From Candidatus Falkowbacteria bacterium (GTDB taxonomy: Bacteria; Patescibacteriota; Patescibacteriia; CAIXNZ01), in contig CAVZGV010000003.1 in assembly GCA_963774955.1 (NCBI GenBank), positions 771-64,770 of the forward strand: a stretch of DNA of 64,000 bases, read 5' to 3'. The notes beneath the pieces were generated by a model that had not been told where the DNA came from, searched no databases, and was given only the letters and a program-made list of their open reading frames with translations. The translations under genes were made by a program, and so were the position numbers. Position 1 is the first letter of the stretch. Each line of letters opens with the position of its first letter. Positions 1-35,308 of the stretch are shown here, one piece after another.

Positions 1-1194
1 TCTGGTTGGGGCGATGCATTTTTAGAGCCCGCTTTAAAAATTTATTTAAAGCGCTGTCGCTAATTTTCAAATTACGTTGTTTGTTGATTTCCAGAGTAAA
101 TCCAGAATTTTATGAACATGTTGGCCGGATTTGGCAGAAATGAAGATAATCGGTGCCCAGGTCAAAAAGGCAAAATAACGGTATATATAGTTTGTATATT
201 CATTGATGGTTGTAACTTCTTTATCTTCAATTAAATCCCATTTATTGGCGATAATGATAATACTCAGTTTTGGACTGCATTAAAAGATCGCTGAGTTTAT
301 TGTCCTGCACGGTGAGTGGCTGGCTGATATCCAGAGACTAAAAGGCAGATGTTGGCACTCTGGGCATTATCAATGCTTTTTCGAACGGAAATTTTTTCTA
401 AGCCCTTGCCGATATTGGCTTGGCGGCGGATGCCGGCTGTATCAATTAGAGTAAAATTTTGTCCTTTATATACTAAGTCAGTATCTATAAACTCACGTGT
501 AGTAAAAGGGATGGGTGAAACAATGACTCGGTCTTCACCTATAATCGCATTTAATAATGATGATTTTCCTACATTAGGTTTGCCGATAATAGCAATTTTG
601 ATGGATTTTAGTTTTTCTAGTTTATTGGAGACTTTACTTTTTTTAATAATTTTTAATTTGTTCACTATTTCGTGTCCAATAAATCACCGGTGGCCATGCC
701 AGTTAAGGCTGAAACAAAAAAGGTGCGCCAAGTCCCAATTGATAAAAACTCAGCTGCCCCAGTACTGAAATTTAAGTGAGTCGGTTTTATTGGCGATTAA
801 AATGATATGTTTATTTGGGAAAAGTTTCTTTAAGGTTCTGGCTAATTCACGATCCTGGGGCAGGGGACCTGTCTGGATATCAACAGTAAATAAAATTAAA
901 TCGGCGTTTTTTAGGGCCGTTTGGGTCGTTGTTTGATAATTTCATTGGCAAAATCAATATTGGCTAAAGGGGCCAATTGTTTTAATTTTTTCTTGGGTAA
1001 AATAGTTTCAATACCGCCGGTATCGATTAATTCAAAATTAATACCCTGCCAGTAAACCTGGCCGATATTAAGGTCGCGTGTGGTGCCGGCAAGTTTGGAG
1101 GTTAAGGCCTTTGGTTGTTCGATTAAGCGGTTAAATAGTGTTGATTTGCCGATATTGGCACGGCCGAAAATAATAACGTTAGGTAGGCTTTCAT
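1..1194 (-). pseudogene. der: GTPase Der/EngA with two G domains. The N-terminus is at ~1194 and the gene runs off the window start. The frame is broken at least 4 times.
   Basis: Minus-strand translation gives LPNVIIFGRANIGKSTLFNRL...TTRD...LIDTGG (GD1) and IAIIGKPNVGKSSLLNAIIGEDRVIVSPIPFTTR...LIDTAGIRR...ANKWDL (GD2), with frame changes between pieces. ORF 297..665 is one fragment. Confidence 0.7.
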
Positions 1195-1213
1195 AAATTT
1201 TAAGTTGCGATTA

Positions 1214-2630
1214 TCAATAAAAAAACCGAATAAATATAGTGTCGTTGTTTTTTAATTTTAAAGAGAGTGACTGGAGATTTTGTCCGAGGATGATAATAAA
1301 ATCAGCCTCAATATTTTGAATGTTTAGCCATTCAGGTTTGTCTGTGGCTAGAGTAGCATTTAATTTTGTTTTAAGATCATCGAGATCTTCGCCTCTTTGG
1401 CCATTAGTTAAATCATAAATCAAAGTTGACTCAATATCTTTTTGTGCCGCATTGCCGATTTTAGTTATTTTATAGCCATGGCCTTTAAATCTACAGGTGC
1501 GATAGGCCAGCCCTTCTATTTTGGTACCGTTTTGTATTTCTATTTTTACAATTTGCTTGGCTTTTTCAGGATTGCCGGTTCAAAAACATTTTTCACCATT
1601 TTTTGTAATTGTTTAAACGACATGTCCTTGGGTAAAAGCAAGTAAGCGCCATTAATCATGGTCGCATAAAGAGGGCTGTCATTGGATGGCTCTAAAACCA
1701 AGTTGGTTATATTATTAGAATCAAAGTCTTTAGCTAATTTGTAAAATTTATAGATTTCCCAAGGTTCCAGATTGGTGGACACGTTTTCCTTATACATATT
1801 TAAGAACGCCGAAATTTTACTGTAGCTGATAAAAGTCGTAAAGGATAAGGCCTTGTCTTTGATGGCTGTCAGAATTTTTTGTTGTCTTTTACTCCTGGCA
1901 AAATCTGAACTTTCACCATTATTGCCATGTCGAGACCGGGCAAAGTTTAGGGCGGTTTCGCCATCCATTTTTTGTAAACCTTGTTCAAATGATACGGTTT
2001 GATAGCCATAGTTATCAGTGGGAAACTGAGAATCAGTAAAGGCAGTATCAACATAGACTTTAATACCATCCAATTCATTGATTAATTTTTCAAAGCCGGA
2101 AAAGTCAACTCGTATATAATAATTTATAGGCTGATCAAAAATCTGGCTGATACTCTCAGCTGACTGGGCACCGGCTCCTTTTTCTTTCATTTCCCCATAA
2201 TGATTGGCTTCATTGATTTTACGCCAGCCATAGCCGGGAATGGGAACAGATAAGTCGCGAGGGATAGAAACCATTGAAACTTTCTTGGTTGATGGTTGGA
2301 CGGAAACAAGAATGTTTGTATCGGTTAAATAGGGACCAGGATGTCCTTCTCCGCCCATGCCTGTGAGTAGGATATTTATGCGATCTTCTTTTTCTCCTGC
2401 CAGCAACTTGTCTTTGCTTATCGTGAAATTTAATGTTTGGAAGATATTGATTTTCTGATGTTCGCTGAAATGCTTTCACCGGACAGCAAGATTTCAAAGG
2501 AGAAAATAAATACGAAAATTGCCAAGAAAATCAGCGGGTAAAAAAGACACTTGGAGAACTCCCCGTTTCTTTGGCTGTTTTGGAGGTTTCGAATGAAATT
2601 GGTTAGGAAATTGATTTTAGGGGTTGACAT
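1214..2630 (-). pseudogene. LytR-CpsA-Psr (LCP) family cell-envelope phosphotransferase. It has an N-terminal TM anchor and is split over at least 3 frames.
   Basis: ORF 1546..2406 contains ILLTGMGGEGHPGPYLTDTNILVSV...MVSIPRDLSV...ALNFARSRH...SDFARSKRQQKIL, the LCP signature. ORF 2430..2630 supplies a TM helix upstream and ORF 1214..1423 a C-terminal continuation. Confidence 0.6.
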
Positions 2631-2794
2631 CTAAGGTCCTAACTAAAAAATTAGGAGAAATGATTTCTCTACTATTAATTTAAACAGAAAAATAGAAAAA
2701 GACAAGGAGTGGCGAGATTTGCTGCTATCTTTATGGTTTGTGCTATCATTAGATTAAACTTATTTTAATTTTTAGTCATTCAATCTATTATGCC

Positions 2795-3416
2795 CAGCAT
2801 CAAAAATGAGGATAGCCAATTTGAATGGAAGACCAAGTCAACATACGATTCCCTGGTAAAACCATAGGGGAATTTTTTATTGAGATTGTTAAGGTCGTCA
2901 TTATTTCTTTGGCCATTATTATTCCGGTGCGTTATTTTTTAATTCAGCCTTTTATGTTAAAGGTGCTTCCATGGAACCCAGTTTTCATGATCATGAATAT
3001 TTGATAATCAATGAAATCGGTTATCGTTTGGATCAGCCACAGCGCGGTGATATTATTGTTTTTCGTTATCCCAAAGATCCGAGTCAATATTTTATCAAAA
3101 GAATTATTGGCTTGCCTGGCGAAAAAGTTAAGATTAAAGATAATAAGGTTTATGTTTATAATGATAAATTCCCAATAGCGTTGAATTAAATGAAGAGGTT
3201 GTATATTGTGAAGATGTGGAGACAACTAATGTGGGTAAATCAGAATTTATTCTAGGCGCGGATGAATATTTTGTTATGGGGGATAATCGTGAGGCTAGTT
3301 TGGATTCTAGAGGATTTGGTCCAGTGCCAAAGCGGTTGATTATTGGCAAGGCCTGGGTTCGTGGCTGGCCATTTGATAAGATTGGTGTTTTTAAACCTCC
3401 ACAATATAATTTTTAA
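2795..3416 (+). pseudogene. lepB: Signal peptidase I, fragmented by frameshifts.
   Basis: GASMEPSFHDHEYL...RGDIIVFRYPKDPSQYFIKRIIGLPGEKV (S26 boxes B-D) in ORF 2971..3189; [17 protein letters not shown]...GKAWVRGWP (box E) in ORF 3216..3416. A one-T deletion in a T-run upstream breaks the TM / Ser-box region. Confidence 0.6.
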
Positions 3417-3572
3417 TTTTAGGGGGCCTTGCTTCGGATTGATTAAATAATTTTACGAACTAAACAAAAAGCCAAGATAAAAGTTTGATTTAATCCCGTA
3501 TGCCAAAAGTTAAGAAAGATCAAAAAAATGAAAAAAGTTAAAGGTGAAATTGTTAAGCAGATGAAAGCTGAA

Positions 3573-4878
3573 ATGAAGTTGATAGAATTTCAAAGTTTCA
3601 AAACAGACGCCGCAGGTTTTGCGTGGATTTAAAGATATTTTGCCAGGGGAGCAAAAATATTGGGATTTGTTGCGGGAAAAATTAGCTATTATTGTGCGTG
3701 ATTATGGATTTGAGCGAATCGATTTGCCGCTTGTTGGAAGAAACAGCGCTTTTTGTCCCGTTCTGTTGGTAAAGAAACAGATATTGTTGACAAAGAAATG
3801 TTTAATTTTATTGATAAAGGCGGTGAAAATGTTAGTTTAAGACCAGAAGCAACTGCTCAGTTGGTCGTGCCTACATTAATCACGGTATGTTTAATTTACC
3901 CCAGCCAGTTAAACTTTATTATGTAGGCCCAATGTTTCGTTATGATCGGCCGCAATCAGGTCGTTATCGACAGTTTAATCAGTGTCGGTTGTGAGGTTTT
4001 GGGCGATATGCATCCGGTTTTGGATGCGCAGATGATTATCATGGCCTATAATTTTTTCAAAGAATTGGTATTCATGTCACGGTATTCAGATTAATAGTAT
4101 TGGTTGCGTATCAATTGCCGCAAGGATTATAAAGTTCAATTGGTGAATTATTATAAAACTCAAAGAGCTGATTTATGCGATGATTGTAAAGACCGCTCGG
4201 TCAAAAATCCCTTGCGACTTTTAGATTGTAAGGAAGAAAAGTGTATTGCCATTAGTGAAGATGCGCCGCAAATTGTGGACTTGGTTATGCGATGAGTGCA
4301 AGAATCATTTTGTCAAAGTGCTTGAATTTCTAGATGAATTGGAAATTCCTTATAATCTAAATTCTTATTTGGTTCGCGGTTTGGATTATTATACTAAAAC
4401 CGTTTTTGAGGTTTGGTCTGAAAATGAGGAAAAGAAGGGTCAAAATGCCCTGGGTGGTGGTGGCCGCTATGATGGTTTGGTGGAAATGCTGGGCGGGCGG
4501 GCAACTCCGGCTGTGGGTTTTGCTCTAGGCTTAGAACGAATCATTTTAAAAATAAAGGAGTTGAATCTGCCTGTACCCGAGAAAGAAAAACGCGATCTTT
4601 TTGTAGGACAGTTGGGCGAAGCTTCAAAAAGAAAAACGTTAAAGCTTTATGAAACCTTAAGGGCCGAGGGGCTTAAAGTGGCGGAATGCTTTGCCAAGGA
4701 TGGTTTGAAAAGTCAGTTAGAAATTGCCAATAAATTGGGAGTAAAATATACCTTGATTTTAGGTCAGAAAGAAATGTCTGAAGGGACTATCATTTTGAGG
4801 GACATGGAAGCAGGTGTCCAGGAAACAATAAATTATAATAAAGTCGTTAAAGAAGTTAAAAAACGGTTGGAAATATAG
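3573..4878 (+). pseudogene. hisS: Histidyl-tRNA synthetase. The 5' two thirds are broken by several single-base indels; the C-terminal 210 aa (anticodon-binding domain) are intact.
   Basis: RGFKDILPGEQKYWDLL...[10 protein letters not shown]; then, after frame changes, [83 protein letters not shown], and the intact LVRGLDYYTKTVFEV...GGGRYDGL tail. Confidence 0.7.
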
Positions 4879-4985
4879 AGGATAGTACAATTCGAAAAAA
4901 AGTGCTAAGGATATTGCAGGTTGAAAAAGATCAAGCTGATGGCGCGTTAGCCCGTAAAATAGTGGAAGAAGAATCAAACAAATAA
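4879..4985 (+). repeat. Degenerate remnant of the yqeY 3' end, a scar of the segmental duplication.
   Basis: 4937-4985 (gatggcgcgttagcccgtaaaatagtggaagaagaatcaaacaaataa) matches 8373-8421, the end of the yqeY-like gene, with a few substitutions. Confidence 0.6.
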
Positions 4986-5003
4986 AAAATTCAGATAATT
5001 CCC

Positions 5004-7514
5004 ATGCACAAGCACTTTCTCTTGGCGCCAGTAAAAAGCCGGGAGCAAAAAAATCATAAATTTGACAATAAGACTGCCAAAGCATTATTGATAGTTGTTT
5101 TGTTTACGGCAGTTTTTTTGTTTGTGTCTCCGGCTTTAGCCCAAACTCAGGATATTACAGGTCTAAGCTATGCTCAATACACCGGGCTGGGTACTCAGGA
5201 TATCCGGATTACAATTGCTAATTTAATCAGGATATTTTTTGGACTTTTAGGATTGGTCGCCGTTGTGATTATACTTTACGGCGGTTTTTTATACATGACT
5301 TCGCAGGGAAACCCTGAGGTAATTCAAAAGGCGAAAAAAGTACTTATCGGCGCTTTTATCGGCCTGCTTATCTGTTTATTGGCTTTTGCTATTGTTCAAT
5401 TTATAATAACCGCTATTTTAGGCGGTGGCGGAGGCGGAGAAGGTGGAGTCGGCGGTGGCTGGGGCGGTGGCGGCGGCGCTTTAGGTTCAGGCATTATAGA
5501 AAGCCATTATCCGGCACGCGATGCAGTCAATATTCCGCGCAATACAAAAATTGCCGTTACTTTTAAAGAGGCAATGTGTCTGACTAGTATAGTCAATGCC
5601 GAGACTGGTAATAAGATTAACACAGATAATATAAGAATATATCCGACGCCGGAAGGCAACGCTGAGCCTGTTTATGTTCAGGACGTTGACGCTTCATATA
5701 CTGCGGACTTAAAGACTTTTGTTTTCAGGCCTGTTAATTATCTGGGCAGTTCAGGTGCGCCTATGCGTTATACTGTGGAATTGACTGAAGATATTACTAA
5801 ATTTGGCTGTAGTAATCCGGCCTTTGGAGTCTTCAGGAATTATGCCTGGAACTTTACTGTTTCTACGGAAATAGACAATACGCCACCGCAGATTAAGTCG
5901 GTCATTCCGTATCCGGCTGAAGAAGTTGATCGTAATAATATTGTGCAGATTAATTTTACCGAACCGATAGACCCGATGACTTTACGAGGGGTAGTGCAAC
6001 TGGACGGCGGTAATAATGTGACGGTGGGCAGTTTGCAGACCGGTACATATAATTACATAAATGTTTGTGCCGCGGCAGATTGTTCTGCGAGCAATAAATT
6101 TATTGCCGGTGAATTCAGATATTCAAATCAGTATCAGACTGTAGAATTTATCACTAATGATCTTTGCGGTAAAAACAGCTGTGGCGGTGATGTTTATTGT
6201 CTGCCGGGTTTGGCTGATATATCTGTCTTGGTTAAAGCCGCTAGTTTAATCCAGGCTGAAGAAAATACTGCGCAATTTCCGTATAACGGTCTGGTTGATA
6301 TGGCTGATAATTCTTTGGATGGAAACTTGGACACTAAATCCGCAGGACCAGGCACTACGCCATACAGCCTTAATGATAATTTGGTTGGCGGAGAATATGT
6401 GACTGCTGCCGGTGAAGGTGATAATGCTATTTGGGAGTTTAGTACGACCGATAAAATTGATTTGATACCACCGCAGATAAGTGTGACTACACCTTTGGCC
6501 AATACCAAGGATGTGGATCCTGACGATACTTATATGATTGATTTTGATAAAGTCATGATGTCCAGCACCTTAAAGCCTAACGGTCAGTATGATGATGGCA
6601 AAAACTATATTACCTTGATTCAGTCAGAAGTACCGGCCGGTTTCGAAGCAGGCTATTGGCTAGAAAAAGAGGAATTTACTGTGGCCAGCAGGCTGAGAAC
6701 CAGGGCCTTAATGAAAACATCTGGTTTGGGTGAAAATCTCAATTATGGCATGAAAATAAGTTCTGACGTTTTGGATATTAAACAAAATTGTTATTTGCCA
6801 TGTTCTGGTCCTGGTTGTGTCAGGCAAGAGGTGCCTGGCGGCAAGCCGGGTCAATATGTTCAAGGCGTGCCCTGGACCCCGCCAACCGGCGCTTACCCAA
6901 CCTGTAATTTAACCGGAACAACTTATAGGTCAATCGGTAATTTTAATGTCAGCTATAGCGAGGACGGGGCAGATAAAGTGTTTTATTTTAAAGCTTTTAG
7001 TCTTATCGACAGTGCCAATACAATTAATGATTTTTATCTTTATGGTAAAGGTATTCCCAGTTCAACAAATGTAATGAAGCATGGAGCTACTTTTACTCAA
7101 ATGATAGCCACAAATAGGGCAGCAACGATGGTATATTATAGCCAATCGGAAAATAAATATTATTTAGTTAATTTTTATGGCGGTTTTGATTCCGGCGGAA
7201 CCGCAAATGCGACAATTACCGGTGGCATTAGCGTCGCCATTTCCGATGATGCGGGTGAAACCAAGGTAACTAATGCGGGGTTAAAAATTATTTCCTCCTC
7301 TCAGTCCTGGACTAGATGGATGGATGGATCGGCAATTTATATCGGCGATGGTTCGGCGGATTTCAGCGTAAAAATGAATCTGACGAGTTTTAAAAAAACT
7401 TTACCGTCTAATCAAAAATGTACCGATGCAGAATGTGAATGGTTTTTATTTGGGCCAGAAGGCCCTGTAAAATTAACAATTCCAAGTGAAGTCACGATTA
7501 ATTTTACAAAATAA
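5004..7514 (+). CDS. Secreted pilin-module adhesin paralog A1 (836 aa). It has a signal peptide, a VirB2/TrbC-like two-helix hydrophobic hairpin, a poly-Gly linker and a Cys-containing beta-rich ectodomain.
   Basis: Intact 836-aa ORF. N-terminus: KALLIVVLFTAVFLFVSPALA | QTQD...TQDIRITIANLIRIFFGLLGLVAVVIILYGGFLYMTSQGNPEVIQKAKKVLIGAFIGLLICLLAFAIVQFI, then GGGGGGEGGVGGGWGGGGG. The 5' ~1.55 kb is nearly identical to 8440-9990. Confidence 0.8.
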   Translation: MHKHFLLAPVKSREQKNHKFDNKTAKALLIVVLFTAVFLFVSPALAQTQDITGLSYAQYTGLGTQDIRITIANLIRIFFGLLGLVAVVIILYGGFLYMTSQGNPEVIQKAKKVLIGAFIGLLICLLAFAIVQFIITAILGGGGGGEGGVGGGWGGGGGALGSGIIESHYPARDAVNIPRNTKIAVTFKEAMCLTSIVNAETGNKINTDNIRIYPTPEGNAEPVYVQDVDASYTADLKTFVFRPVNYLGSSGAPMRYTVELTEDITKFGCSNPAFGVFRNYAWNFTVSTEIDNTPPQIKSVIPYPAEEVDRNNIVQINFTEPIDPMTLRGVVQLDGGNNVTVGSLQTGTYNYINVCAAADCSASNKFIAGEFRYSNQYQTVEFITNDLCGKNSCGGDVYCLPGLADISVLVKAASLIQAEENTAQFPYNGLVDMADNSLDGNLDTKSAGPGTTPYSLNDNLVGGEYVTAAGEGDNAIWEFSTTDKIDLIPPQISVTTPLANTKDVDPDDTYMIDFDKVMMSSTLKPNGQYDDGKNYITLIQSEVPAGFEAGYWLEKEEFTVASRLRTRALMKTSGLGENLNYGMKISSDVLDIKQNCYLPCSGPGCVRQEVPGGKPGQYVQGVPWTPPTGAYPTCNLTGTTYRSIGNFNVSYSEDGADKVFYFKAFSLIDSANTINDFYLYGKGIPSSTNVMKHGATFTQMIATNRAATMVYYSQSENKYYLVNFYGGFDSGGTANATITGGISVAISDDAGETKVTNAGLKIISSSQSWTRWMDGSAIYIGDGSADFSVKMNLTSFKKTLPSNQKCTDAECEWFLFGPEGPVKLTIPSEVTINFTK
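5082..5500 (+). other. Pilin-like module (two hydrophobic helices around a short GNPE..K.KK loop) plus Gly-rich linker of A1.
   Basis: Hydrophobicity pattern read from the translation. Paralogous copies at 8518-8935 and 11125-11500. Confidence 0.55.
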
Positions 7515-7529
7515 ACAGAACCCTATTTG

Positions 7530-7612
7530 AGGGACATGGAAGCAGTGTCCAGGAAGCAATAAATTATAATAAAGTCGTTAAGGAAATCAAGAAAAGACTG
7601 GAAATGTAATGA
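7530..7612 (+). repeat. Remnant copy of the hisS 3' end (out of frame).
   Basis: tttgagggacatggaagcag-tgtccaggaagcaataaattataataaagtcgttaa matches hisS 4796-4860 with ~85-90% identity and a 1-nt gap. Confidence 0.65.
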
Positions 7613-7633
7613 TAATAATTTATCAATGAGGAA

Positions 7634-7662
7634 AGTGCTAAGGCTAGCCAAGCACTTTTTTT
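7634..7662 (+). terminator. Rho-independent terminator after A1.
   Basis: agtgct-aaggctagcca-agcact stem-loop followed by a 7-T run. Confidence 0.6.
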
Positions 7663-7682
7663 ATTTATAAACAGTTTTTAAT

Positions 7683-7711
7683 TTGACTGATTAGCCAAAT
7701 ATTGGTATATT
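7683..7711 (+). promoter_or_regulatory. Sigma70-type promoter for rpsU-yqeY.
   Basis: TTGACT, 17 nt, TATATT, about 30 nt upstream of the rpsU start. Confidence 0.5.
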
Positions 7712-7738
7712 TAAAGTATCTTAATTATTGAAAGGAGA

Positions 7739-7969
7739 ATGGTTATAATGACCGAAGTTAAAAGAAAAAAGAGCGAAACCTTTGAAAGCTTATTAAGAAG
7801 GTTTAATAAAAGAATGATTCAGAGCGGCAAAATTTTGCAGGCTAAAAAAATCAGATTTAAAACTAAGGGACCCAACAAAAATTTGGCCAAGCAATTAGCC
7901 CTAAGAAGATTGAAAATCAAGACTAAAAAAGACTATTTGAGAAAAATCGGCAAGTTAATTGAGGAATAA
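7739..7969 (+). CDS. rpsU: 30S ribosomal protein S21.
   Basis: Small basic protein ...RFNKRMIQSGKILQAKKIRFKTKGPNKNLAKQLALRR..., typical of S21. An AGGAG RBS at 7733-7737 favours the second ATG at 7748 as the real start. Confidence 0.75.
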   Translation: MVIMTEVKRKKSETFESLLRRFNKRMIQSGKILQAKKIRFKTKGPNKNLAKQLALRRLKIKTKKDYLRKIGKLIEE

Positions 7970-7974
7970 TTATA

Positions 7975-8421
7975 ATGCAGATGTCAATTTTACAGCAAAT
8001 AGATACTGATTTTCAGCAAGCCCGAAAAGATCAGAATCAAGACGCCTTATCCACCTTGCGTCTGATTCTGGCTGCTTTGAAATACGAACGAATTAAAAAA
8101 ATGGTTGATTTAACTGAAGATGATGTCATTAAAATATTAAAAACAGAGACAAAGAAACGAAAAGAATCAATAGTTGAATATGAAAAAGGCAACCGTCAGG
8201 ATCTGGTTGCCAAAGAACAAACTGAAATTAAAATAATTGATAAGTATTTGCCAGCTCAGTTAAGTGAGGATGAAATCAAAGTTAAAGTCAGGGCCATACT
8301 TAGTTCCCTGGAAGACAAAGATAATGCCGGTAAGGTTATGGGTAAAGTAATGGCAGAAATGAAGGGACAGGCCGATGGCACATTAGTTCGTAAAATAGTG
8401 GAAGAAGAATCAAACAAATAA
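7975..8421 (+). CDS. yqeY: GatB/YqeY domain protein.
   Basis: 148 aa, ...ILAALKYERIKK...KRKESIVEYEKGNRQDLVAKEQTEIKIIDKYLP...AGKVMGKVM..., the YqeY family pattern. Confidence 0.6.
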   Translation: MQMSILQQIDTDFQQARKDQNQDALSTLRLILAALKYERIKKMVDLTEDDVIKILKTETKKRKESIVEYEKGNRQDLVAKEQTEIKIIDKYLPAQLSEDEIKVKVRAILSSLEDKDNAGKVMGKVMAEMKGQADGTLVRKIVEEESNK

Positions 8422-8439
8422 AAAATTCAGATAATTCCC

Positions 8440-11028
8440 ATGCTTAAAAATTTTCTCTTGGCGCCAGTAAAAAGCCGGGAGCAAAAAAATCATAAATTTG
8501 ACAATAAGACTGCCAAAGCATTATTGATAGTTGTTTTGTTTACGGCAGTTTTTTTGTTTGTGGCTCCGGCTTTAGCCCAAACTCAGGATATTACAGGTCT
8601 AAGCTATGCTCAATACACCGGGCTGGGTACTCAGGATATCCGGATTACAATTGCTAATTTAATCAGGATATTTTTTGGACTTTTAGGTTTGGTCGCCGTT
8701 GTGATTATACTTTACGGCGGTTTTTTATACATGACTTCGCAGGGAAATCCTGAGGTAATTCAAAAGGCGAAAAAAGTACTTATCGGCGCTTTTATCGGCC
8801 TGCTTATCTGTTTATTGGCTTTTGCTATTGTTCAATTTATAATAACCGCTATTTTAGGCGGAGGCGGCGGCGGAGAAGGTGGAGTCGGCGGTGGCTGGGG
8901 CGGTGGCGGCGGCGCTTTAGGTTCAGGCATTATAGAAAGCCATTATCCGGCACGCGATGCAGTCAATATTCCGCGCAATACAAAAATTGCCGTTACTTTT
9001 AAAGAGGCAATGTGTCTGACTAGTATAGTCAATGCCGAGACTGGTAATAAGATTAACACAGATAATATAAGAATATATCCGACGCCGGAAGGCAACAACG
9101 AGCCTGTTTATGTCCAGGATGTTAACGCTTCTTATACTGATGACTTAAAGACTTTTGTTTTCAGGCCTGTTAATTATCTGGGCAGTTCAGGTGCGCCTAT
9201 GCGTTATACTGTGGAATTGACTGAAGATATTACCAAATTTGGCTGTAGTAATCCGGCTTTTGGAGTCTTCAGGAATTATGCCTGGAACTTTACTGTTTCT
9301 ACGGAAATAGACAATACGCCACCGCAGATTAAGTCGGTCATTCCGTATCCGGCTGAAGAAGTTGATCGTAATAATATTGTGCAGATTAATTTTACCGAAC
9401 CGATAGACCCGATGACTTTACGAGGGGTAGTGCAACTGGACGGAGGTAATAATGTGACGGTGGGCAGTTTGCAGACCGGTACATATAATTACATAAATGT
9501 TTGTGCCGCGGCAGATTGTTCTGCGAGCAATAAATTTATTGCCGGTGAATTCAGATATTCAAATCAGTATCAGACTGTAGAATTTATCACTAATGATCTT
9601 TGCGGTAAAAACAGCTGTGGCGGTGATGTTTATTGTCTGCCGGGTTTGGCTGATATATCTGTTTTGGTCAAAGCCGCCAGTTTAATCCAGGCTGAAGAAA
9701 ATACTGCGCAATTTCCGTATAACGGTCTGGTTGATATGGCTGATAATTCTTTGGATGGTAATTTAGATAATAAATCTGCGGGGCCAAGCGCTACGCCTTA
9801 TAGCCTCAACGATAATTTGGTGGGCGGCGAATATGTAACTGCCGCCGGTGAGGGTGATAATGCTATCTGGGATTTTAGTACGACCGATAAAATTGATTTG
9901 ATACCGCCTCAGATCAGCGTGACTACTCCTTCGGCCAATACAAAAGATGTTGACCCTGACGATATTTATACAATTGATTTTGATAAGGTCATGATGTCCA
10001 GCACTTTGAAACCAAACGGGAATTATAACGGACAAACCACAGAGACTATTTATATAAATAATTTATTGGATGGATTGCAGGGTTACTATCGTTTTACGAC
10101 TAGTGCTATAGACGATTCTGGTGCTAGCCATGATGGTACCCTTATGGGTACGGCTTCCATTGTAAATGGAGAATTAAACGTTACAGGCAGTAGTAATAGC
10201 TCTGTTACTACCAGCTTTAAAATAGATCAAACATCCGGTAAGACTGCTACTTTTTGCGCTTGGGCAAATCCCAGAGGAGCGACGACTTGGCAGGGTAATG
10301 ATTTAATTTCTACAGATAATGCCGGTTATGATTGGGCAATTGATATTATACCGTCAGGATATTGGCGGGTGGCAACCGGTAAAAATTATTGGACTGCTAA
10401 TAATCAATTTCCAGCTAAATTGAACCAGTGGCAGTATGTTTGCGCTGTATTTACGACTGACAATGTTTATATATATGTAGATGGCATCGCCGCCAGTTAT
10501 GGTCAGGCGCCCGGGTATGATAGTAGTGTTAATTTTTTTACTATTGGCGCAAATCCTTCATTTCCCCCTGAAGTTTTTGACGGTAAAATTGACGCTGTTG
10601 TTGTTTATAACCGGGCTTTGGGTCCTGAAGAAATAACTGCTTTATATAATTTGGGTAAAGACGGAGATGTCTTGAGTTATCAGGGGCAACCAGTCACTCA
10701 GGTTCAGGAAGGTGAAAATTATATTACGTTAATTCAGTCGGCAGTCCCTGCCGGTCAGGAATCAGGCTATTGGATAGAAAAGGAGGAAATTACTGTGGCT
10801 AGCATACTGAGAACCAGAGCCTTAATGAAAACAACGGGTTTAGGTGAAAATCTCAGATATGGCCTGAAAATAAGTTCTAATGTTTTAGATATTAAACAAA
10901 ATTGTTATTTGCCGTGTTCCGGCCCTGGCTGTGTCAGGCGAGAAGTGCCTGGTGGTAAGCCGGGTCAATATGTGCAGGGGACACCTTGGCAGGGTACTTA
11001 CCCGACCTGCAATATCCCGCCGCAGTAA
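8440..11028 (+). CDS. Pilin-module adhesin paralog A2 (862 aa). Same N-terminal 510 aa as A1, but it carries an inserted LamG/ConA-like lectin domain and lacks the A1 C-terminal extension.
   Basis: Intact ORF. The first ~1.55 kb and 40 nt of upstream sequence are nearly identical to A1. A LamG_3-like block lies at ~10060-10665 (HDGTLMGTASIVNGEL...WQYVCAVFTTDNVYIYVDG...FDGKIDAVVVYNRALGPEEITALYN). Confidence 0.8.
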   Translation: MLKNFLLAPVKSREQKNHKFDNKTAKALLIVVLFTAVFLFVAPALAQTQDITGLSYAQYTGLGTQDIRITIANLIRIFFGLLGLVAVVIILYGGFLYMTSQGNPEVIQKAKKVLIGAFIGLLICLLAFAIVQFIITAILGGGGGGEGGVGGGWGGGGGALGSGIIESHYPARDAVNIPRNTKIAVTFKEAMCLTSIVNAETGNKINTDNIRIYPTPEGNNEPVYVQDVNASYTDDLKTFVFRPVNYLGSSGAPMRYTVELTEDITKFGCSNPAFGVFRNYAWNFTVSTEIDNTPPQIKSVIPYPAEEVDRNNIVQINFTEPIDPMTLRGVVQLDGGNNVTVGSLQTGTYNYINVCAAADCSASNKFIAGEFRYSNQYQTVEFITNDLCGKNSCGGDVYCLPGLADISVLVKAASLIQAEENTAQFPYNGLVDMADNSLDGNLDNKSAGPSATPYSLNDNLVGGEYVTAAGEGDNAIWDFSTTDKIDLIPPQISVTTPSANTKDVDPDDIYTIDFDKVMMSSTLKPNGNYNGQTTETIYINNLLDGLQGYYRFTTSAIDDSGASHDGTLMGTASIVNGELNVTGSSNSSVTTSFKIDQTSGKTATFCAWANPRGATTWQGNDLISTDNAGYDWAIDIIPSGYWRVATGKNYWTANNQFPAKLNQWQYVCAVFTTDNVYIYVDGIAASYGQAPGYDSSVNFFTIGANPSFPPEVFDGKIDAVVVYNRALGPEEITALYNLGKDGDVLSYQGQPVTQVQEGENYITLIQSAVPAGQESGYWIEKEEITVASILRTRALMKTTGLGENLRYGLKISSNVLDIKQNCYLPCSGPGCVRREVPGGKPGQYVQGTPWQGTYPTCNIPPQ
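10060..10665 (+). other. LamG / concanavalin-A-like lectin domain cassette, present in A2 and absent from A1.
   Basis: Motif pattern typical of the LamG_3 family, ending in the ...iDeV.iYNrALs.eEI..lY box. Confidence 0.6.
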
Positions 11029-11052
11029 ATTTTAATAAATTGATTTTAATTT

Positions 11053-14000
11053 ATGAGGAGGTTCAATATAAAAAATTTGTTTCTTTTAGGCCTGATTTGT
11101 TTGGGTTTATTTGTGGTTGTTAATTTCGTTAGTGCTCAGGGTTCGACCATTGATCCTGGACTTAATTATGTCGGCCCTAATATTGGCATGGGTACTCAGG
11201 ATATTAGAATTACTATTGCCAATATCATCAGAATACTTTTAGGTATTTTGGGGCTGGTTGCGGTGATAATCATTATTTACGGCGGAGTTTTGTATATGAC
11301 AGCGGCCGGTGAGGTAGAAAAAATAAAAAAGTCCAAGCAATTGATAATCGGCGCGGTTATTGGCTTAATTATTGTTTTATCAGCTTTTACCATCGCCAGT
11401 TTTATAATCAGCAGTATTCAGAACGCAACCGGACCCGGAGGAGGGCCAGGAGAAGGGCCAGGGCCAGGACCAGGACCGGGACCAGGGCCAGGACCGTTAA
11501 CTGGTTTTTGTCAGGATCCGGATTTGACTTCAGATGCCCCTTATATTTGCAGCTTATCGCCGAAACAGGCGAAAAAAGGTGATTACGTTACTATATTGGG
11601 CGGTAAATTTTTAGATTATGATAATGCCAATAGTAAAGTAGTTTTTGTAAAAGAAGGTGATACAACAGAAACAGAATATCCGGCCACTATTGTTTTATGC
11701 GCCAGTAATCCATCCTGGAAAGACTATGAAATTATAATTGAAGTGCCTAATGATTTGCCCGCAGGACCCGGCTTTAATATTTATGTAAAAAATGCCAAGG
11801 GGACCAGTAAAGATAAGCTTGTCGGCGCTTTAGATCCAAGCCATAAATTTACTTTGCTTGACGGTCAGCCTGGCCCGGGTATTGCTTGTTTAGAGCCTGA
11901 TGCCGCCAATAAGAATTTATCAATAAAAGTTTACGGTAAGCGCTTTGGAGCAGAGCAGGGTACCAGTAAATTCACCTTTACTGAAAATGCCTTAGCCGAA
12001 ACAATCGTCGGCTGGAGTGATACTGAATTAACCAGCGTTAGTGTGCCGGCAACTGCAATTAGCGGCAATGTTTTTGTCACCGTCTCAGATCAAAATAGTA
12101 ATGGTGTGTTTTTTAGATACACCTGTAATGTCAGTGATGATTGCGTCTCCACCTGTTGTACTGAAACGTATTTCGGAAAAAGCTGCGCAGCTGCTAATTA
12201 TTGTCTGCCTGGTCCTGGGGAAAGCTGTAACGGAGATACTACAGGCGGAACTTGTCAGCCGACCGAATGTCGGCCAGACTCTGTCTGTGATACAACGACT
12301 TGTGATTGTCGCTATCCACAGTCAGGTGATCCTTGCGATGCAGACCTCAACACAGCAGCCTGTCAGCCTGACGCCGCTAAATGCGGTTCAGGTTTATACT
12401 GTGCGCAAGCGAGCTGTACTTGTGCGGAAATGCCGCAAATAACCAAAGTTGAACCCAATGACGGCGCTCCTGGTAATTTTGTGACTATTTGGGGCAAGGG
12501 TTTTGAAAATAATATGGTCAAACCTGAGGATATAGTTTTTAAATCTGATTTTGATTCCGAGGCCGGCAAAGTAGGCTGGAGCTTTGATACCGGAGTATCC
12601 GGGGAGGGTGAAATCCGTACGGATGGTAAGTCTTATTCAGGTTCATCTAATATTTATCTGCGCATGCCCCAGACTGCCGAGGCTAATGATCTCTTATCAG
12701 CTTATTTGGAAGTAGCTGAAGCTTTGAATCCGGATTTGCGGCTCAATGAGGAAGATGTTCTTGTTTTTCAGTTTAAGTACAAAGGAACAGTGTCTCAAGG
12801 TTCAAGTTTTAGCCTTGGTTATATAGATAATAACAATCAAATTCATACTTGGGCTTATATGTCAGTAGGGACTTTTGAAGATTGGGATACTTATAATTAC
12901 GTAATTTATTCTATCCCTATTAATGCGGAAAAAATATTTATAACATTAAGGAGTACAGGAACTCAAGCAGAAGATAGTGAAATGTATATTGATGATGTTC
13001 AGGCATTTAGATTGCCTGAATACGGCGAAGTTAGGTTTTGCGGCCAGGGTGGCTGTGGCAATTCTGATGATAGAATTGCCCGTATGCCTATATTTGTGGC
13101 ACCTTTTTGTTCAGCTGACGGAATTTGGACTGACAATCAGATAATTGTTGAGGTCCCCCTCGGCGCTGGCTCCGGTCCACTTCAGGTGACAACAGTTAGC
13201 GGACTCCAGGATGCAACCAATGATGAAAATGGTGAGCAACTTTCAGATTTTGAGATTAATACTATTAAGAGGCCGGCTATGTGCAGACTATTTCCTGCTC
13301 AAGGTGTCTATGAACAAAGAGTTGTAATCGGAGGTATAAATTTCGGGACAGCTCTAGGTGAAGTTTTAATCGGCGGTACAAGTTTTAATACTATGTTGAG
13401 ATCTACAGTCCCGCCTTCGCGTTGGCCTAATTATATTTGGTATGACCAGATTATTGCTCAGTTAGCGGTACCGTTATTAAGCGCAGGTACTTACCCTGTG
13501 CAAGTGAAAGTTGGTGATGAATTCAGTAATCCCATGAATTTTAAAGTTTTACCGAACGTAGGCGCCCCGCATATTGACGCGATTGACCCGGTTCAAGGTC
13601 AACCAGGTCAGTATATTACTATCTTGGGCAGTAATTTCGGTAATCAACCCGGTTCAGTTAAATTTAATAATAATGAGCCATTGAAGGATAACTGGACATC
13701 TGGTGATATTTCTTTTCCGGCTCAGTGTCAAAGCAATTATTGGCATGATACATATATCGTGGTAAAGGTTCCGTCCGGACTGTCTACCGGCTTGATTGAT
13801 GTCGTGGTTAAGGCCGGTGAAGTATTTTCCAATACCACAAAATTCACGATTTGTGCTGCCGGTTCAGGCACTTGTCCATTGACCCCGGGAATTTGTGCTA
13901 TAAATCCCAAACAGGGGCCGGTGGGTTTAAGCGGAGTTACTGTTTATGGTGAAAACTTTGGTGATTATTTAAATACTAAAAGTCAAATCGTTTTTAATGA

Positions 14001-17000
14001 AGTTCCTGTCAGCGATGTTATTGGCTACTGGACTAATACCATGATTGGTCTGGGTTCGAATTTAACAGCAGCAGCTAATCCGCCGATCGTTGTGCCGGAG
14101 ACTACCAGCGGTCCGGTGCAGGTAACTGATAAAAACGGTATCCTTAGTAATACTATTAAATTTGAAGTTTCTGACTGCCGTATTGATGCGACAGTTTGTG
14201 CTGAAGGAACTAAATGTTGCGGTACTGGATCTTGTCTGGCTGAATGTCCGGTGGCAACTGTTGCCTCTTGTTCATATAATTGGAGCTTTACCACGGGAAC
14301 CAGGACACCTTATTTCGGACCTCCTTATGTGGTTGAAGATTCCGGTTGTACCAATAATACCCAAAGTCCGTCGCCCTGGATTTCTTCGGAAAATAATTGT
14401 GTTGATGCTTTGATTTCCGCCAGATTCAGACAGCCTGCGCAAAACGGAGATGTAGATGCCAATATTTTAACCTCCACCTTAATCCCCGATAATATTAAGG
14501 TTGTACCCTGCGGTAGCGCCGATGTTTTTGATGATGCAAATTGTGAGACAGCGGGCATCGCTGGTCGCGATATTAATCCGATTGAAGTGGAAAACCCCCA
14601 TGTCTTAGTGACTGGCGGTCCTACGGTAACCAATAAATTTACTTTTTATCCCAAGTCTTCCTTACTGCCAAATACTTGGTACAAGGTGGTTTTAAAAAGT
14701 AATCCCAGCACTAACCTTGGTATTAAAACAAATAATGATGTCTATCTGGACGGTGATAAAGACAGCCTGGACGGGGGAGATTACAGCTGGTATTTCAAAA
14801 TCAGAAATTCGGCGGATGAATGTCCGATTGATAAAGTTTTGGTTTCCCCTCCAACTGCCAAGCTTACTTTAATTACTCAAACGCAGGAATATAGCTCGTA
14901 TCCTATTGCCATGAATTGCAATATTTTAAATCCGGCTAATTATACCTGGAATTGGTGGAAGAAATATAGTGATGGCCATGAAGAAAATGCCGCTGACACT
15001 GATGGCGGTTATGGCGTGGCCACGCTGGCGCCAAAAACTCCGCCGCCTCAATTTATTGGCAGCTATAGCTATAAACAGCTGGCCACACCCAAAAAACAAG
15101 GCTTGGTCTATGTGGCGGTTAATATTTTTCCGAGTGAGCCTGCTAAATATAAAGAAGATACCAATAATACGCTGGTGGTTGATTTTAATATTCCCAGTAT
15201 AATTGATTTTTATCCCAAAGACGGTATTAATCAGGCGGAAGTTAATTCTTATGTAACAATTGAAGGTATAAATTTTGGTCAAAGTCAGGGCGACAGTCAG
15301 GTTTTATTCGGCGAAGCGCAAGCTCAGCTGGCAGACTGTGTTGATTCTTGGACAGATAAAAAGATTAAAGTAATTGTGCCCAAGGCCGGGCCCATTCAAA
15401 GTTCAGGCTTAAAAACACTGGCGACGCCCGAGCCAGTCAGCTTTAATAATAATCTTATTTTAGGCTATAATTTTGATGAAAATGATGATGTCTTGGTCGC
15501 TGATATTACCGGCAATTATCAGGGTGAGATTGTTAACGGATCCAAAGTAGATTCACAATTTAATAAAGCTTTACAGTTTAACGGCACTGATACTTATGTT
15601 CGAATCGGAGGCAATATCCAAGCAGCTTCTGGCAGTATTGAATTTTGGTTTAAACCCGAAGCCAGCGGAGTTCTATTTTCAGCTATGGGGCAGGCAGGCA
15701 ATGATTTTACTATCAGTTATAATGCTGCTGCCACGTTGGGAGTTATTAAAAATAATCAATGGAATCATGTAGTCTATACCTGGGATCAGGCCAAAATCGA
15801 AGACAATTTGTATATAAACGGGATAAGGCTAAGCGGAATTAATAATCCGGGCCTTGATATTGCCGGCGCTTTTATCGGGGTGAATAAAATCAGTTATATG
15901 TTGGGAACCCAAGAATCCGGCGGGTTAAGAATCAATTATTTTAAAGGGCAACTTGATGATTTTGCCATTTATAATAAGGTTTTAAGTCAGCAGGAAGTTT
16001 GGACAAATTTCGGGCTGACACCGGGACAAATTGTTTTGTTAAATTTTGAAGGAACTGGGTCGGAAATTTTAGATTCATCACTTAATAATTTTGTCGGTAT
16101 GGCTGTTGACAACCAGAATGTAAGTTTCCGGACAGCTGAAGGCAAATATGGTCAGGCCATTACTTTTGATAATAATAATCGAATAAATATTATAAATAAT
16201 CCCTCTTTGTCTTTTGATAATCAGTTTACTATTGAGGGCTGGTTTAAAATTCCCACCTTAAATTCTAACACTATTTTCGAGGCGAATAATATTAAACTGG
16301 GGGTTAACTCCGGGAATCTTAGGCTGGAATTGAAGCTTGATGTCGGCAATCGCTATCTGAATTTAGGCTTAGTTACGACGGGGGCAGACAAAAATTTTGA
16401 TATTAATGCCTGGAATTATTTTGCCGGGGTCTATGACGGAGAAAAAATCAAACTTTATTTGAATAGTTCAGAAAAAGAATATGCTACGGTTGGCAAGATA
16501 TTTCAGGAAGCAGACTTTAATAAAGCATATATCGGGGGTATCGGTAGTTCTTTTCAAGGCTCCTTGGATAATTTAGCCCTATATAATCGGGCATTATCCT
16601 CGGCGGAAATTAATAGCCGTTTGGGCGCTAAAGATAAATCTTTTATTAAAGTGGTTACCAGTTTTGGCCAGGCTATAAGCGATTTTAATAATAATGGCAT
16701 CAAAGATCCGGGTGAAATTTATACTTATAGTAATAATATTTATCCTTTCTTGTGTGCCTTGCAGCCAAATTTCGGGACTGAAGGGACAACTATCAACGTC
16801 AGTGGTGATAATCTTGGTAATAATAATAAAACTATTTATCAGAACAAACAATACGGTATTGGCAGCTATATTAAGTTCAATTATCCGAGTTTGCCTGTTT
16901 TGGACAACAACAAAATAAAGACCTGGACTAATAAGGCTCTGAGTTATGTAAATCCATTTACCAACGTGGACAGTCCAGTTATCAAGGTTTTTGCCACCAT

Positions 17001-20000
17001 TGATCCTTATTCCGAACCTTATAATGATCAAGAAAATGACGGACAGTTTATCGATGGGATGGATACTGACTACGCCGATATTAAGCCAGAACCAAACGGC
17101 AATGGTGTTTATGATAAATATAATTATTCTGTTTACGGCGGAAACGGTGACCAGCCTGAATTAGCCAGTAATACCGTGGATTTTTTTCAGCCGCCAGTAA
17201 TTGTCAGCCTGTCTCCTGATAATGGTCCGGTTAATCAATGGGTTACAATTTACGGTTATAATTTCGGTATTTTTGACCCGGAGATAAGTAAAGTACAATT
17301 TTATAATAATATTACCGGGCGCGTCATCGGCTGTCCTGATCCTGTTTGGTTTGATGATCATATTATTGTGGAAGTTCCGGTAGAGGCTCAATCAGGAGCA
17401 GTCAAAGTAATTACTGCCCAGGGTTTGGTCAGTAATGAAAAACCCTTTAAGGTAAACAATAATCCGTTGGGCGCAGGATTATGCGCTTTTCAAGATTTAT
17501 TGGGTGAACCGAAATTTAACGGCCGACCGACTGACCCGATTAAAGCAATTGGGGTGCGCTTTGATGCTGTCCAGGGCCAAAATAATTTGATTTTCAATGA
17601 TAAGCAAAATGCTCCGATTGCTGACCCGGCGGATTGGGCGGATTCGGAAATTATTTCTACTGTGCCGGTCAGTGCTGAAAGCGGCTTGGTTTATGTTAAT
17701 AAAAAAGTGGAATCAGGCAGAAAGTGCGTGGGCTTTAGTATTGCCAGCTGGTGTCCGAGTAATAAGTACGATGTTTTATATACTGATGTGCCTAGTAATT
17801 CTCTGCCTCTGGAGATTCTCAATCTCTGCGAAAGCGGTTATTACGGGACCTTGGAAGCCCGAGAAAAAGCGTTCCCAATAGAAACTTTTACCCGCGCAGA
17901 TGATAATGCCCCCAAAATAGAATTTTCCGATCTTAATATGGGCGTTTTAGCTTCTGACGGCACTTATTTGTATGCGATGTATCAGAGTGTTAATCTTTGG
18001 GGATATTCATTCTTTGGTAATCCTAATGAGGATAATGTCATGACAATCTGGAAAATCGGGTCAGGTTATAATGGCACGGAATTGGGCCGAGTTTATAAAA
18101 AATATCAGGCCACCCGAAAGCTTCTTTATCCTGATGCCGGAACATATGTTGCGGAACTTTCAGCGCCAACGGGGACCAGTTCATTAATTTATACCCCGAC
18201 CGGACTTTATGTCGGTTATGAAAATCATTTTAAGACTAGGAGCTGGCTGCCGACGACTCATCCTGATTATAAAAAGAACTGGTGGGGTATTGCCAAAATA
18301 AAATTTAATGAAGCCAGCAGTACATATGACTGGGAGATGCAAGAAATTCCTCAGGGTTTGGTTCTGGATTATTATCCTACCTGGCCAATTGTGACTAATG
18401 CAAGTTCTTCCTCTGCTAGTAATCGTTTGATGTTATATTATACCGGTAGCAATATTTTAGTTATTAGTAGAGATAATAATTTACCGGGTTTTGTCATTCA
18501 GGTTTTAAACAATGATTGGCTACAACTAGGTTTAACGTCTGTTAAAAATGCCGAGGCTAATTTTTATTCTTATAATGCTATTGTAAATACGTATTGGAAT
18601 TACACTGCAACTTATCCACAAGGTGTTGCTGATGAGCAGTATTTTTATAATATTTATAGTAACAGGGTAAATATTATTGACTGGCGTACAGGAGAGTGGG
18701 TAGGCAGGTTTGGTAATTACGCCGCGTGGACAGTTGAACAGAATGGCGTTTATGACTGGAAAAATCAAAAATACTGGTTTGGCACCAATAGAAATGATAC
18801 CCCAATTACTTGGACCTCCAATCCAGCTTATTATTCGCAAATAGTGCCGTTTACCTATGATGCTAACGGCAATCTGTCTAGCAACCATAATCGTATTTAT
18901 CGCTATGAAAAATGTCAGACTCCGATAGTCGGTTTTTGCCGTTCTGATCTTGATTGCCAGCAAGGCGGCATGTGTACGAACAGTAGATGTGAAAACGGGC
19001 AATGTACTCCGGAAATTAAGTCTTTTTCGCCGCTAGAAGGAGCAGTCGGTACTTGGATGACAATCAGCGGCTGTCATTTCGGTTGTCAGCCGGGGCAAGT
19101 ATATTTCAGCGGCGGAACATCACTTGACCAAGTATCAACTGATGGTTTATTGGCGGGCTACACCTTTGATTCAACGGAAAATAACGGATTATTCAGGAGT
19201 TCTTTTACCAACCCAGACATCAGCAGTCAACTGGTTGGTAGCGCTACCATCAGCAATGGGGTCTTGAATGTTACCGGTGATGGCTACTTGGATTTAGATA
19301 ACAGACTGGCTCAGGCTCAATATTTTGGCGGTACTGAGACCGGGAAAATGACCTTGCTGATGAAAGTAAAAACCGCTAGTTTCTCGGCCGGTAATATAAT
19401 TAATTTATCCAGGTATATCAAAGGTACGAATTATTTTGCCCTGCAGCCAAGTACCGGAGATCAGACTCAGCTTCGTATTTATGTTAAGACCAAAACTGTC
19501 GATCGGTCGATCTATTCTGCGGGGAAGATCTTGCGTAATGAATGGAATAATATCGCTTTTGTTATGGAAGCAGGAATCGGCTATAAAATTTATATTAACG
19601 GAAAGCTGACGGATGATGTTCCAGCGGCTGACCTTATATTATACAGCTGGAATGGTGATACTGCACTTGGTATAGGGTATTCTAAATTTATTGGCCAGAT
19701 TGATGATTTCTTTGTTTATAACCAGGCTTTATCCGCTGAGGAAATATTAAAATTTTCCTTAGGTGCCAAAGGACTGGAGCTGGCTGATCCGGTTTGCTGG
19801 CCAAATTGGAATTGTTCTTCTACCGGAGGTTATGATGAAGTGACCGTGGAAGTGCCTAATCGTCGGACACCTACCAATTTAGCTGATGATGCGCTAACCG
19901 GGCCAGTTCAAGTGGTCACTGCGGCTGGGTTAGTGGATAGCAGCAATGATTTGCCGCTTGCTCCGACTCCGACGCCGCCGACGCCGCCGACAGCGCCAAG

Positions 20001-35262: not shown

Positions 35263-35308
35263 TAGTTTATTTTCTGGAATCAAGGAATTTAATTATCCAA
35301 TCAAATTT

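Follow-up and report, generated by a model that had tools for sequence, protein, structure and literature searches.

A 64-kb stretch of DNA from Candidatus Falkowbacteria bacterium (the window; contig CAVZGV010000003.1 of assembly GCA_963774955.1, positions 771-64,770 of the forward strand) was examined for two neighbouring surface-protein genes, designated A1 and A2, which were defined from a listing of the open reading frames (ORFs) and their translations. A1, at nucleotides (nt) 5004-7514, encoded a protein of 836 amino acids (aa) with T4SS_pilin and Big_5 domains in Pfam, for which an AlphaFold2 model was built; A2, at nt 8440-11028, encoded a protein of 862 aa possessing the same pilin anchor and immunoglobulin-like (Ig) stalk, a LamG domain apparently nested in Ig domain 3, and a short tail ending in CNIPPQ. 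Both genes, their parts and repeats, and the neighbouring genes from hisS to the large gene downstream of A2 were on the + strand. The comparison set consisted of the window and 69 fetched loci, including L002 to L005 as well as L022 and L006 (the latter identical with L001). L022 and L006 are contigs JAPLYC010000015 and JAPLYC010000068 of the closest genome, the Parcubacteria metagenome-assembled genome (MAG) LacPavin_0920_SED3_MAG_40_21, hereafter LacPavin.

Local nucleotide alignment and a repeat finder showed that A1 and A2 share an ungapped match of 1652 nt (4932-6583 versus 8368-10019) with 95.8% identity, beginning 72 nt upstream of both ATG codons and falling to about 87% in the last ~260 nt before the breakpoint at 6583. 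The similarity was far above chance (tblastn E = 0), and the first 527 aa shared 97.5% identity. At this point A2 carried an exact in-frame insertion of 678 nt (10020-10697), encoding 226 aa (aa 528-753) with a Laminin_G_3/ConA-like domain, whereas A1 continued without interruption at 6583-6584, between KPNGQYDDG and KNYI in a loop of Ig domain 3, the same point at which the LacPavin ortholog carries LamG. The conserved block that followed, nt 10698-10979 of A2 and 6584-6865 of A1, was aligned without gaps over 282 nt (84% nucleotide and 86.5% aa identity), and ~12-13 further residues beyond it (PW..YPTCN) were alignable. After YPTCN, A2 ended within 4 codons (CNIPPQ and stop), whereas A1 ran on for a C-terminal extension of ~215 aa (6867-7511, start approximate) composed of a linker and a ~200-aa beta-sandwich. 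The drop in identity at 6865 was considered as a recombination breakpoint upstream of YPTCN and dropped, since ~13 alignable codons are too few to distinguish it from ordinary divergence. These structural elements had all been described in an earlier sequence-only reading, and all were confirmed at the places given there, some of the numbers being corrected. Pairwise nucleotide alignment bore out the whole-module anatomy with identity that was not uniform: the 97-98% claimed over ~1.55 kb held for nt 4953-6322 (1370 nt, 98.2%) but not across the full match. The ~200-aa LamG absent from A1 was recovered as the insertion described above, and the ~220-aa beta-rich extension found in A1 only as the ~215-aa extension. 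A1 and A2 are, as had been proposed, true paralogs of one surface-protein family that differ by whole folded modules.

In both proteins, the N-terminal region passed the cut-off of 26.6 bits for T4SS_pilin (PF18895), with 40.0 bits in A1 and 38.5 bits in A2, while the scores for TrbC (PF04956; 22.2 and 20.3 bits, respectively) were under the cut-off of 27.9. Big_5 (PF13205) was matched in 2 stretches with 60 bits in A1 and 65 bits in A2 (cut-off 23.6). Laminin_G_3 (PF13385) was matched by aa 586-732 of A2 over profile positions 4-150/151, with 78 bits against a cut-off of 27.6 (E 1e-21), and no match to this family was found in A1 by Pfam. The AlphaFold2 model of A1, built on 75 homologs with a mean predicted local distance difference test (pLDDT) of 82.9, possessed, in order, a signal/transmembrane helix with a VirB2-like two-helix pilin hairpin (aa 20-138; helices at aa 20-46, 67-98, and 104-138), a Gly-rich linker, three Big_5-like Ig domains, a second linker, and a beta-sandwich. 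The beta domains at aa ~165-621 were confident, the linker at aa 623-638 was disordered, and the beta-sandwich at aa 640-836 was separate. The Gly-rich linker, also disordered in the model, was encoded by a GGC-rich 12-nt repeat (5421-5478 in A1 and 8857-8914 in A2). The solved structures nearest to the full model were the Ig-array S-layer proteins SbsC and Sap. The region at aa ~491-591 of A1 was a third, divergent Big_5-like domain (hhalign versus domain 1: probability 86%, E 5.5e-6), the whole of this third copy spanning aa ~488-621, and the LamG insertion point between aa 527 and 528 falls inside it. Thus, LamG is predicted to lie within a loop of Ig domain 3, as a nested insertion and not as a unit between modules, and the conserved block would correspond to the rest of this domain, that is, its C-terminal two-thirds. 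The C-terminal domain of A1, when modelled alone, gave a pLDDT of 85 and a predicted template modelling score (pTM) of 0.86; a Foldseek search of the PDB gave no significant match (best E 9e-3, template modelling score at most 0.31), and the modelled beta-sandwich appears to be without a recognised fold class.

A homolog search with A2 detected at least 550 relatives, and all those with a source name were from Patescibacteria (Parcubacteria, Buchananbacteria, Uhrbacteria, Falkowbacteria, and others). Members of this family combine a VirB2/TrbC-like helical pilin hairpin with a glycine linker and three Ig-like domains of the Big_5 type. The conserved block was present in 115 of the 120 best matches, most of these proteins ending 5-13 residues past its final Cys. 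Thus, the ~110-aa block noted in the sequence-only reading does lie between the modules, but it is simply the canonical C-terminal part of the family. Among 75 aligned members, the loop, KPxxxYxDG before the insertion point and KxYI after it, occurred in four states: a basic loop of 13 aa (A1 and 15 others), a loop with ~10 extra residues (4 members), a loop with a Cys-rich insert of ~42-63 aa (22 members), and the loop with LamG (A2 and P0003, the latter being the only other protein among the 120 best matches with LamG at the position of A2). The Cys-rich module of 42-63 aa (GYC.C...C...C...) is a third alternative occupant of the LamG site and was carried by P0006-P0008, P0010, P0014-P0019, P0026-P0029, P0031, P0032, P0037, P0039, P0041, and P0050. 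The C-terminal domain of A1 was shared by 12-13 other family members (13 of 75 in the alignment), was always C-terminal, and occurred with the basic loop or the Cys-rich loop; it was rare, with 7 matches among 1.84 billion representative proteins (best 47% identity). Because the loop and the C-terminus vary across the family, both differences between A1 and A2 appear to lie at family-wide hotspots for module gain and loss.

The gene order in relatives was lytR-lepB-hisS-rpsU-yqeY-A, followed by a giant gene encoding pilin, TIG and LamG domains, with a single A gene. L002 possessed a canonical A gene of 629 aa, and L003, L004, and L005 possessed A genes with the C-terminal domain. In LacPavin, L022 and L006 overlapped by exactly 141 nt and together gave hisS-rpsU-yqeY-A-giant gene, in which A had LamG and a short tail, and no A1 was present. 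In the window, the intact 3′ part of hisS (4246-4878; tRNA-synt_His and HGTP_anticodon in Pfam) was collinear with hisS of L022, its 5′ part being frameshifted. The ORF at 7748-7969 between A1 and A2 was, from our own reading of the sequence, presumably rpsU (ribosomal protein S21), of which it is the sole copy in the window; a gene of 72-73 aa occupied the equivalent place in L002-L005 and L022. Directly upstream of A2, as in all relatives, was yqeY (7975-8421; GatB/YqeY-like, Pfam YqeY E 1e-39). Downstream of A2, the giant gene (11053-20286; 3077 aa, with a pilin N-terminus, TIG domains and three LamG domains) was syntenic in all relatives; its pilin N-terminus shared 53% aa identity with those of A1 and A2, making it the third member of a local pilin-gene array.

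Window nt 3-4913 were collinear with L022 through the end of hisS (81.6% identity), and nt 7526-8825 were collinear with L022 from the 3′-end of hisS on (L022 from 9084; 84.2% identity). Thus, collinearity on both sides delimited the window-specific material to ~4911-7525, with the hisS 3′-end present as a direct repeat at its two borders. Copy H of the repeat (4794-4910) comprised the last ~85 nt of hisS and a spacer. Copy R (7526-7643), located 12 nt after the A1 stop codon at the duplication junction, comprised a non-coding hisS 3′ remnant with a 1-nt deletion (7526-7609) and a spacer, and led into an intact hisS-type terminator hairpin (7633-7662). The two copies shared 86% identity in the 64-nt match of the repeat finder, with 11 differences in the 87-nt stretch derived from hisS. 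Upstream of A1, rpsU and most of yqeY were missing, and a deletion scar was found at 4900-4985, where a yqeY 3′ remnant (~4914-4985) directly follows what is left of the hisS terminator stem, its left half (4900-4910), while the intact terminator, rpsU and yqeY precede A2. The locus is thus a tandem segmental duplication, with a distal-proximal junction, collinear copies, and single-copy outgroups (L002-L005 and L022 plus L006). Presumably, a unit that begins with the last ~85 nt of hisS and ends just beyond the stop codon of A was duplicated in tandem after the split from LacPavin, at roughly half that divergence depth, and copy 1 would then have been shortened by a ~700-nt deletion that took away the right half of the terminator of hisS, all of rpsU and the greater part of yqeY. 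Since the hisS terminator is truncated, A1 may be read through from hisS and co-transcribed with it, A2 apparently keeping the ancestral rpsU-yqeY context.

Two further features were observed in the LacPavin contigs. The 141-nt overlap of L022 and L006 lies in the pilin transmembrane region of the A gene and is typical of an assembly-graph break at k = 141, hinting at a second context for this 141-mer in the LacPavin metagenome, either a strain variant or another pilin gene. In L006, a GC-rich spacer of 184 nt (2385-2568) between A and the giant gene had a stable predicted fold (-72.8 kcal/mol, z -2.7); no Rfam match and no copy in the other fetched loci were found for it, and its equivalent in the window was just 24 nt. 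Rfam and tRNA scans of the window and L006 gave no match.

Synonymous (dS) and nonsynonymous (dN) divergence between A1 and A2, estimated per segment by the Nei-Gojobori method, differed widely along the genes. For codons 5-440, dS was 0.053 and dN 0.005; for codons 441-527, 1.03 and 0.038; and for the conserved block, 0.57 and 0.097. The mismatch map showed strong clustering, and a two-breakpoint maximum chi-square scan identified a low-divergence tract of 1370 nt at 4953-6322 in A1 (partner 8389-9758 in A2), with 98.2% identity inside and 84.2% outside (Fisher p = 7e-29; 0 of 200 permutations reached the observed value). Within the tract, a 45-nt patch (5661-5705) contained 9 mismatches. Clustered mismatches together with a dS of 0.053 in the tract versus 0.57-1.03 outside point to recent gene conversion atop an older tandem duplication. 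The genes had been called freshly duplicated in the sequence-only reading, a description that the dS outside the tract does not sustain, the high identity being attributable to the later conversion. This conversion of ~1.37 kb, much more recent than the duplication, would have made the two copies alike again in the pilin anchor and the first two and a half Ig domains, so that the stalks of A1 and A2 appear to evolve in concert while their tips stay different. With omega values of 0.04-0.17 between them, both genes are maintained by purifying selection. Between the window and the LacPavin A gene, dS was 1.2-1.6 and dN 0.13-0.25 in every segment, and for the neighbouring genes dS was 0.43 (rpsU), 0.70 (yqeY), 1.78 (hisS), and 1.20 (giant gene). 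In all shared segments, A1 and A2 grouped together against the LacPavin protein (93% versus 73-74%, and 86.5% versus 70-72%). Since they are closer to each other than to LacPavin, the last common ancestor of their shared parts is younger than the LacPavin split. A crossover between the near-identical 1.37-kb repeats (4953-6322 and 8389-9758) would delete rpsU and yqeY; if these are single-copy, selection would act against losing the duplication, non-crossover conversion still being allowed.

The LamG insertion of the LacPavin ortholog shared 71% aa identity with that of A2 (dS 1.29). Because this single-copy ortholog carries a LamG as diverged as the rest of the gene, LamG was inherited vertically and is older than the LacPavin split. 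The loop sequences were KPNGQYDDGKNYI in A1, KPNGNYDDGKDYI in P0004, and KPNGNYDDG-LamG-GRNYI in LacPavin. As the LacPavin ortholog has LamG, the gene that was duplicated most likely had it already, and A1 probably lost it through an in-frame deletion of 678 nt that would have restored the basic loop of the family (YDDGKNYI). The short tail of A2 (CNIPPQ and stop; AAT ATC CCG ...) was homologous to that of LacPavin (CNIPAPVNP and stop), suggesting that the short tail is ancestral for the A1/A2 pair and that the C-terminal domain of A1, otherwise seen just in more distant orthologs, would be secondary. It may have come from a diverged allele by replacement of the 3′ part, or it may be an ancestral tail that was retained. 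Searches of genome and metagenome contigs with single proteins gave no related loci, and a metagenome profile scan gave distant relatives only, with at most 49% identity. The GC contents (with those at third codon positions, GC3, in parentheses) were 0.395 (0.335) for the C-terminal domain, 0.403 (0.292) for LamG, and 0.426 (0.381) for the shared N-terminal part (nt 5004-6584); these values do not stand out enough for a foreign origin of the modules to be deduced from base composition.

Taken together, the history of the locus was probably one of an older tandem duplication, LamG loss in A1, a change of C-terminal module, and recent conversion of the stalk. Several observations weigh against this account. 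The loop of A1 is exactly the ancestral 13-aa form, so that the deletion had to be very precise, and no microhomology was found at the ends of the LamG insert in present-day A2. No donor of the C-terminal domain was found in the window or in genome and metagenome contig scans, nor was a close relative present in the 1.84 billion representative proteins, and the divergence of this domain (47% identity) is about that of the whole protein (~50%), as descent would give. The hisS remnant (7526-7609 versus 4794-4878) was 87% identical, with only ~50% identity in the adjoining spacer of ~20 nt, and under a simple neutral model it looks younger than the A1/A2 dS of 0.76, which could be due to some conversion or constraint. 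Only one close outgroup genome was available, a fragmented MAG with a contig break inside the A gene, and part of the near-identity in the tract could result from cross-mapping of reads in polishing.

Some of these observations would be accommodated if A1 had never carried LamG. The duplication would then predate the LacPavin split, LacPavin having later lost A1 through recombination between the hisS repeats, or copy 1 would have come from a related strain with a LamG-less allele possessing the C-terminal domain; at least two rounds of conversion would have followed. The exact ancestral loop of A1 is as expected on this explanation, as is the 47% identity between its C-terminal domain and that of P0025, which is commensurate with the divergence of the whole proteins; more distant genomes have single-copy orthologs with this domain at the same locus, the ancestral gene order would be restored exactly by recombination between the flanking hisS repeats, and gene conversion is demonstrably at work in the pair. 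However, separate older conversion tracts of similar age would be required on both sides of LamG without LamG ever being carried across, the non-coding hisS remnant is too well kept for a duplication older than a split of dS 1.2-1.8, and a genome scan of the LacPavin MAG revealed no A1-like gene. Ancient paralogy or allele capture is thus considered unlikely. Far less credible is that the tandem layout or the 98% tract is an artefact of assembly or polishing, arising where strain variants were joined into a chimera or where reads were cross-mapped. The consensus quality is certainly uneven, as essential genes are shredded by indels of 1-2 nt at 1-4290 and 35.3-38.2 kb with a codon-position pattern that is still purifying, and one of the indel-rich patches ends ~700 nt upstream of A1. 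The junctions, in contrast, are illegitimate and do not lie at shared sequence where assemblers mis-join, involving flanking repeats that have diverged (84-87%), the deletion of 1 nt, and a terminator hairpin that bears a deletion scar. In addition, both ORFs are intact and of full length compared with more than 100 homologs, both are under purifying selection, and the sharp boundaries and internal mosaic patch of the tract are typical of heteroduplex repair.

Least probable of all, and by our estimate very improbable, is that A1 and A2 are expression sites of programmed recombinational diversification, with modules exchanged with silent donors as in pilE/pilS, vls-like systems, shufflons, or diversity-generating retroelements (DGRs). 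The sequence-only reading had spoken of cassettes and of swapping, and the whole-module differences do adjoin near-identical sequence, the family does have many alternative modules at the same two sites, and the window is rich in giant LamG/CBM surface proteins. Nevertheless, when cassette donors were searched for by tblastn in the window, the best match to LamG had 25-26% identity and the C-terminal domain matched itself only; in the 69 fetched loci, no close copy of either module was found other than in the LacPavin ortholog. The LamG of A2, inherited vertically and apparently nested in Ig domain 3, has diverged from that ortholog as much as the rest of the gene, and the dS of 0.6-1.0 in the sequence flanking the modules indicates that the module changes are old. 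Apart from the duplication, the only direct repeat in the 64-kb window was a Cys-rich one located at 31.0-31.4 kb, inverted repeats in 4000-12000 were short and at chance level, and no recombinase, invertase, or reverse transcriptase was found in Pfam scans of the larger ORFs of the window. A DGR, an invertible element, and donor cassettes within the neighbouring giant genes were rejected on the repeat, tblastn, and inverted-repeat searches. Within the window, cassette switching is thus largely refuted. As for the diversified binding specificity proposed in the same reading, a difference in ligand specificity is reasonable in view of the module differences, but its attribution to recombinational cassette exchange is not upheld: A1 and A2 would present different distal binding modules on the same membrane or pilus anchor and stalk.

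The two fragmented regions of the window had the following features. In nt 1-4290, der/engA, lytR, lepB and the 5′ two-thirds of hisS were cut by ~45 indels of 1-2 nt relative to L022, with substitutions of ~0.31-0.41 at third codon positions and 0.03-0.13 at first and second positions; the excess at third positions suggests local consensus errors or very recent decay, and not old pseudogenes. In the second patch (~35300-38200), which like the first was in a stretch of lower GC content (0.37), a Tubulin/FtsZ GTPase ORF (36944-37354) of just 136 aa was found amid ORFs of 50-140 aa in varied frames. Runs of very large surface-protein genes were located at 11053-32407 and 50525-63872. Besides the 3077-aa protein, these encoded proteins of 1436 aa (LamG), 1797 aa (CBM_4_9 and Lcl_C), 825 aa (Lcl_C and DUF4215 Cys-rich repeats, 31047-31412), 3233 aa (CBM_4_9), and 1176 aa, the last without a Pfam match. 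Since the 3077-aa ORF and the ORF at 20177-24487 overlap by 110 nt, the latter probably has a later true start.

Varied degrees of likeness were found between A1/A2 and known systems. Tandem arrays of 2-11 genes for VirB2-like (T4SS_pilin) pilins, with a mean aa identity of 25% and a maximum of 54%, have been reported in Patescibacteria (Quinonero-Coronel et al. 2025, PMC12102498), and, by the account of the citing papers, the array is essential in cultivated Southlakia epibionticum (Wang et al. 2023, as cited in PMC12102498 and PMC12857230). Together with the giant gene, A1 and A2 constitute an array of this kind in the same phylum, with the pilin domain of A1 and A2 passing the PF18895 threshold. 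However, A1 and A2 share 97.5% identity in their first 527 aa, compared with at most 54% in the arrays, and the pilin domain here is a mere anchor of multidomain proteins of 830-3000 aa. Pfam scans of the larger ORFs of the window detected no virB4, virB6 or other type IV secretion system gene. Big_5 (SbsA-type) S-layer proteins and LamG adhesins are resembled in that Big_5 and Laminin_G_3 pass their thresholds and the model is nearest to SbsC and Sap; unlike these, A1 and A2 appear to be anchored by a pilin-like helical hairpin instead of SLH domains or a sortase, LamG is apparently nested inside an Ig domain, and the C-terminal domain of A1 is without a recognisable solved relative.

Gene conversion as a cause of concerted evolution between tandem surface-protein paralogs is exemplified by the opa/pil genes of Neisseria and the adhesin paralogs of Mycoplasma, and concerted evolution is seen also in tuf genes. 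As in these systems, a sharp low-divergence tract with a mosaic patch lies within older paralogs and ends well before the heterologous modules. In contrast to them, there were no silent donor cassettes or signs of programmed variation, a single event was visible, and the converted part was the conserved anchor and stalk and not the variable binding tip. Ordinary duplication, gain or loss of domains, and gene conversion are sufficient, and known processes are refined with no new mechanism involved. A more speculative reading, which we offer tentatively and regard as rather doubtful, is that these proteins represent a two-slot modular adhesin scaffold, in which the pilin anchor and Ig stalk would take alternative binding modules at the loop of Ig domain 3 and at the C-terminus. 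A1 and A2 would persist as a stable set of two specificities, with conversion keeping anchor and stalk identical, perhaps to fit the same secretion or assembly machinery, while the tips are held apart and single-copy rpsU makes loss by crossover lethal; the C-terminal beta-sandwich would then represent a novel fold for ligand binding, confined to these bacteria.

The ultra-small Patescibacteria spend their lives attached to other cells, and little is known of their host recognition. Arrays of VirB2-like pilin genes occur widely in this phylum. The locus described here provides a dated example of how a pilin-anchored gene, presumably adhesive in function, may diversify, that is, by tandem duplication, by a nested lectin and a C-terminal domain being gained or lost at two recurrent hotspots, and by conversion of the shared anchor. 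The conserved syntenic pair, an A gene and the giant gene beside hisS-rpsU-yqeY, could serve as a marker for comparing host-binding repertoires.

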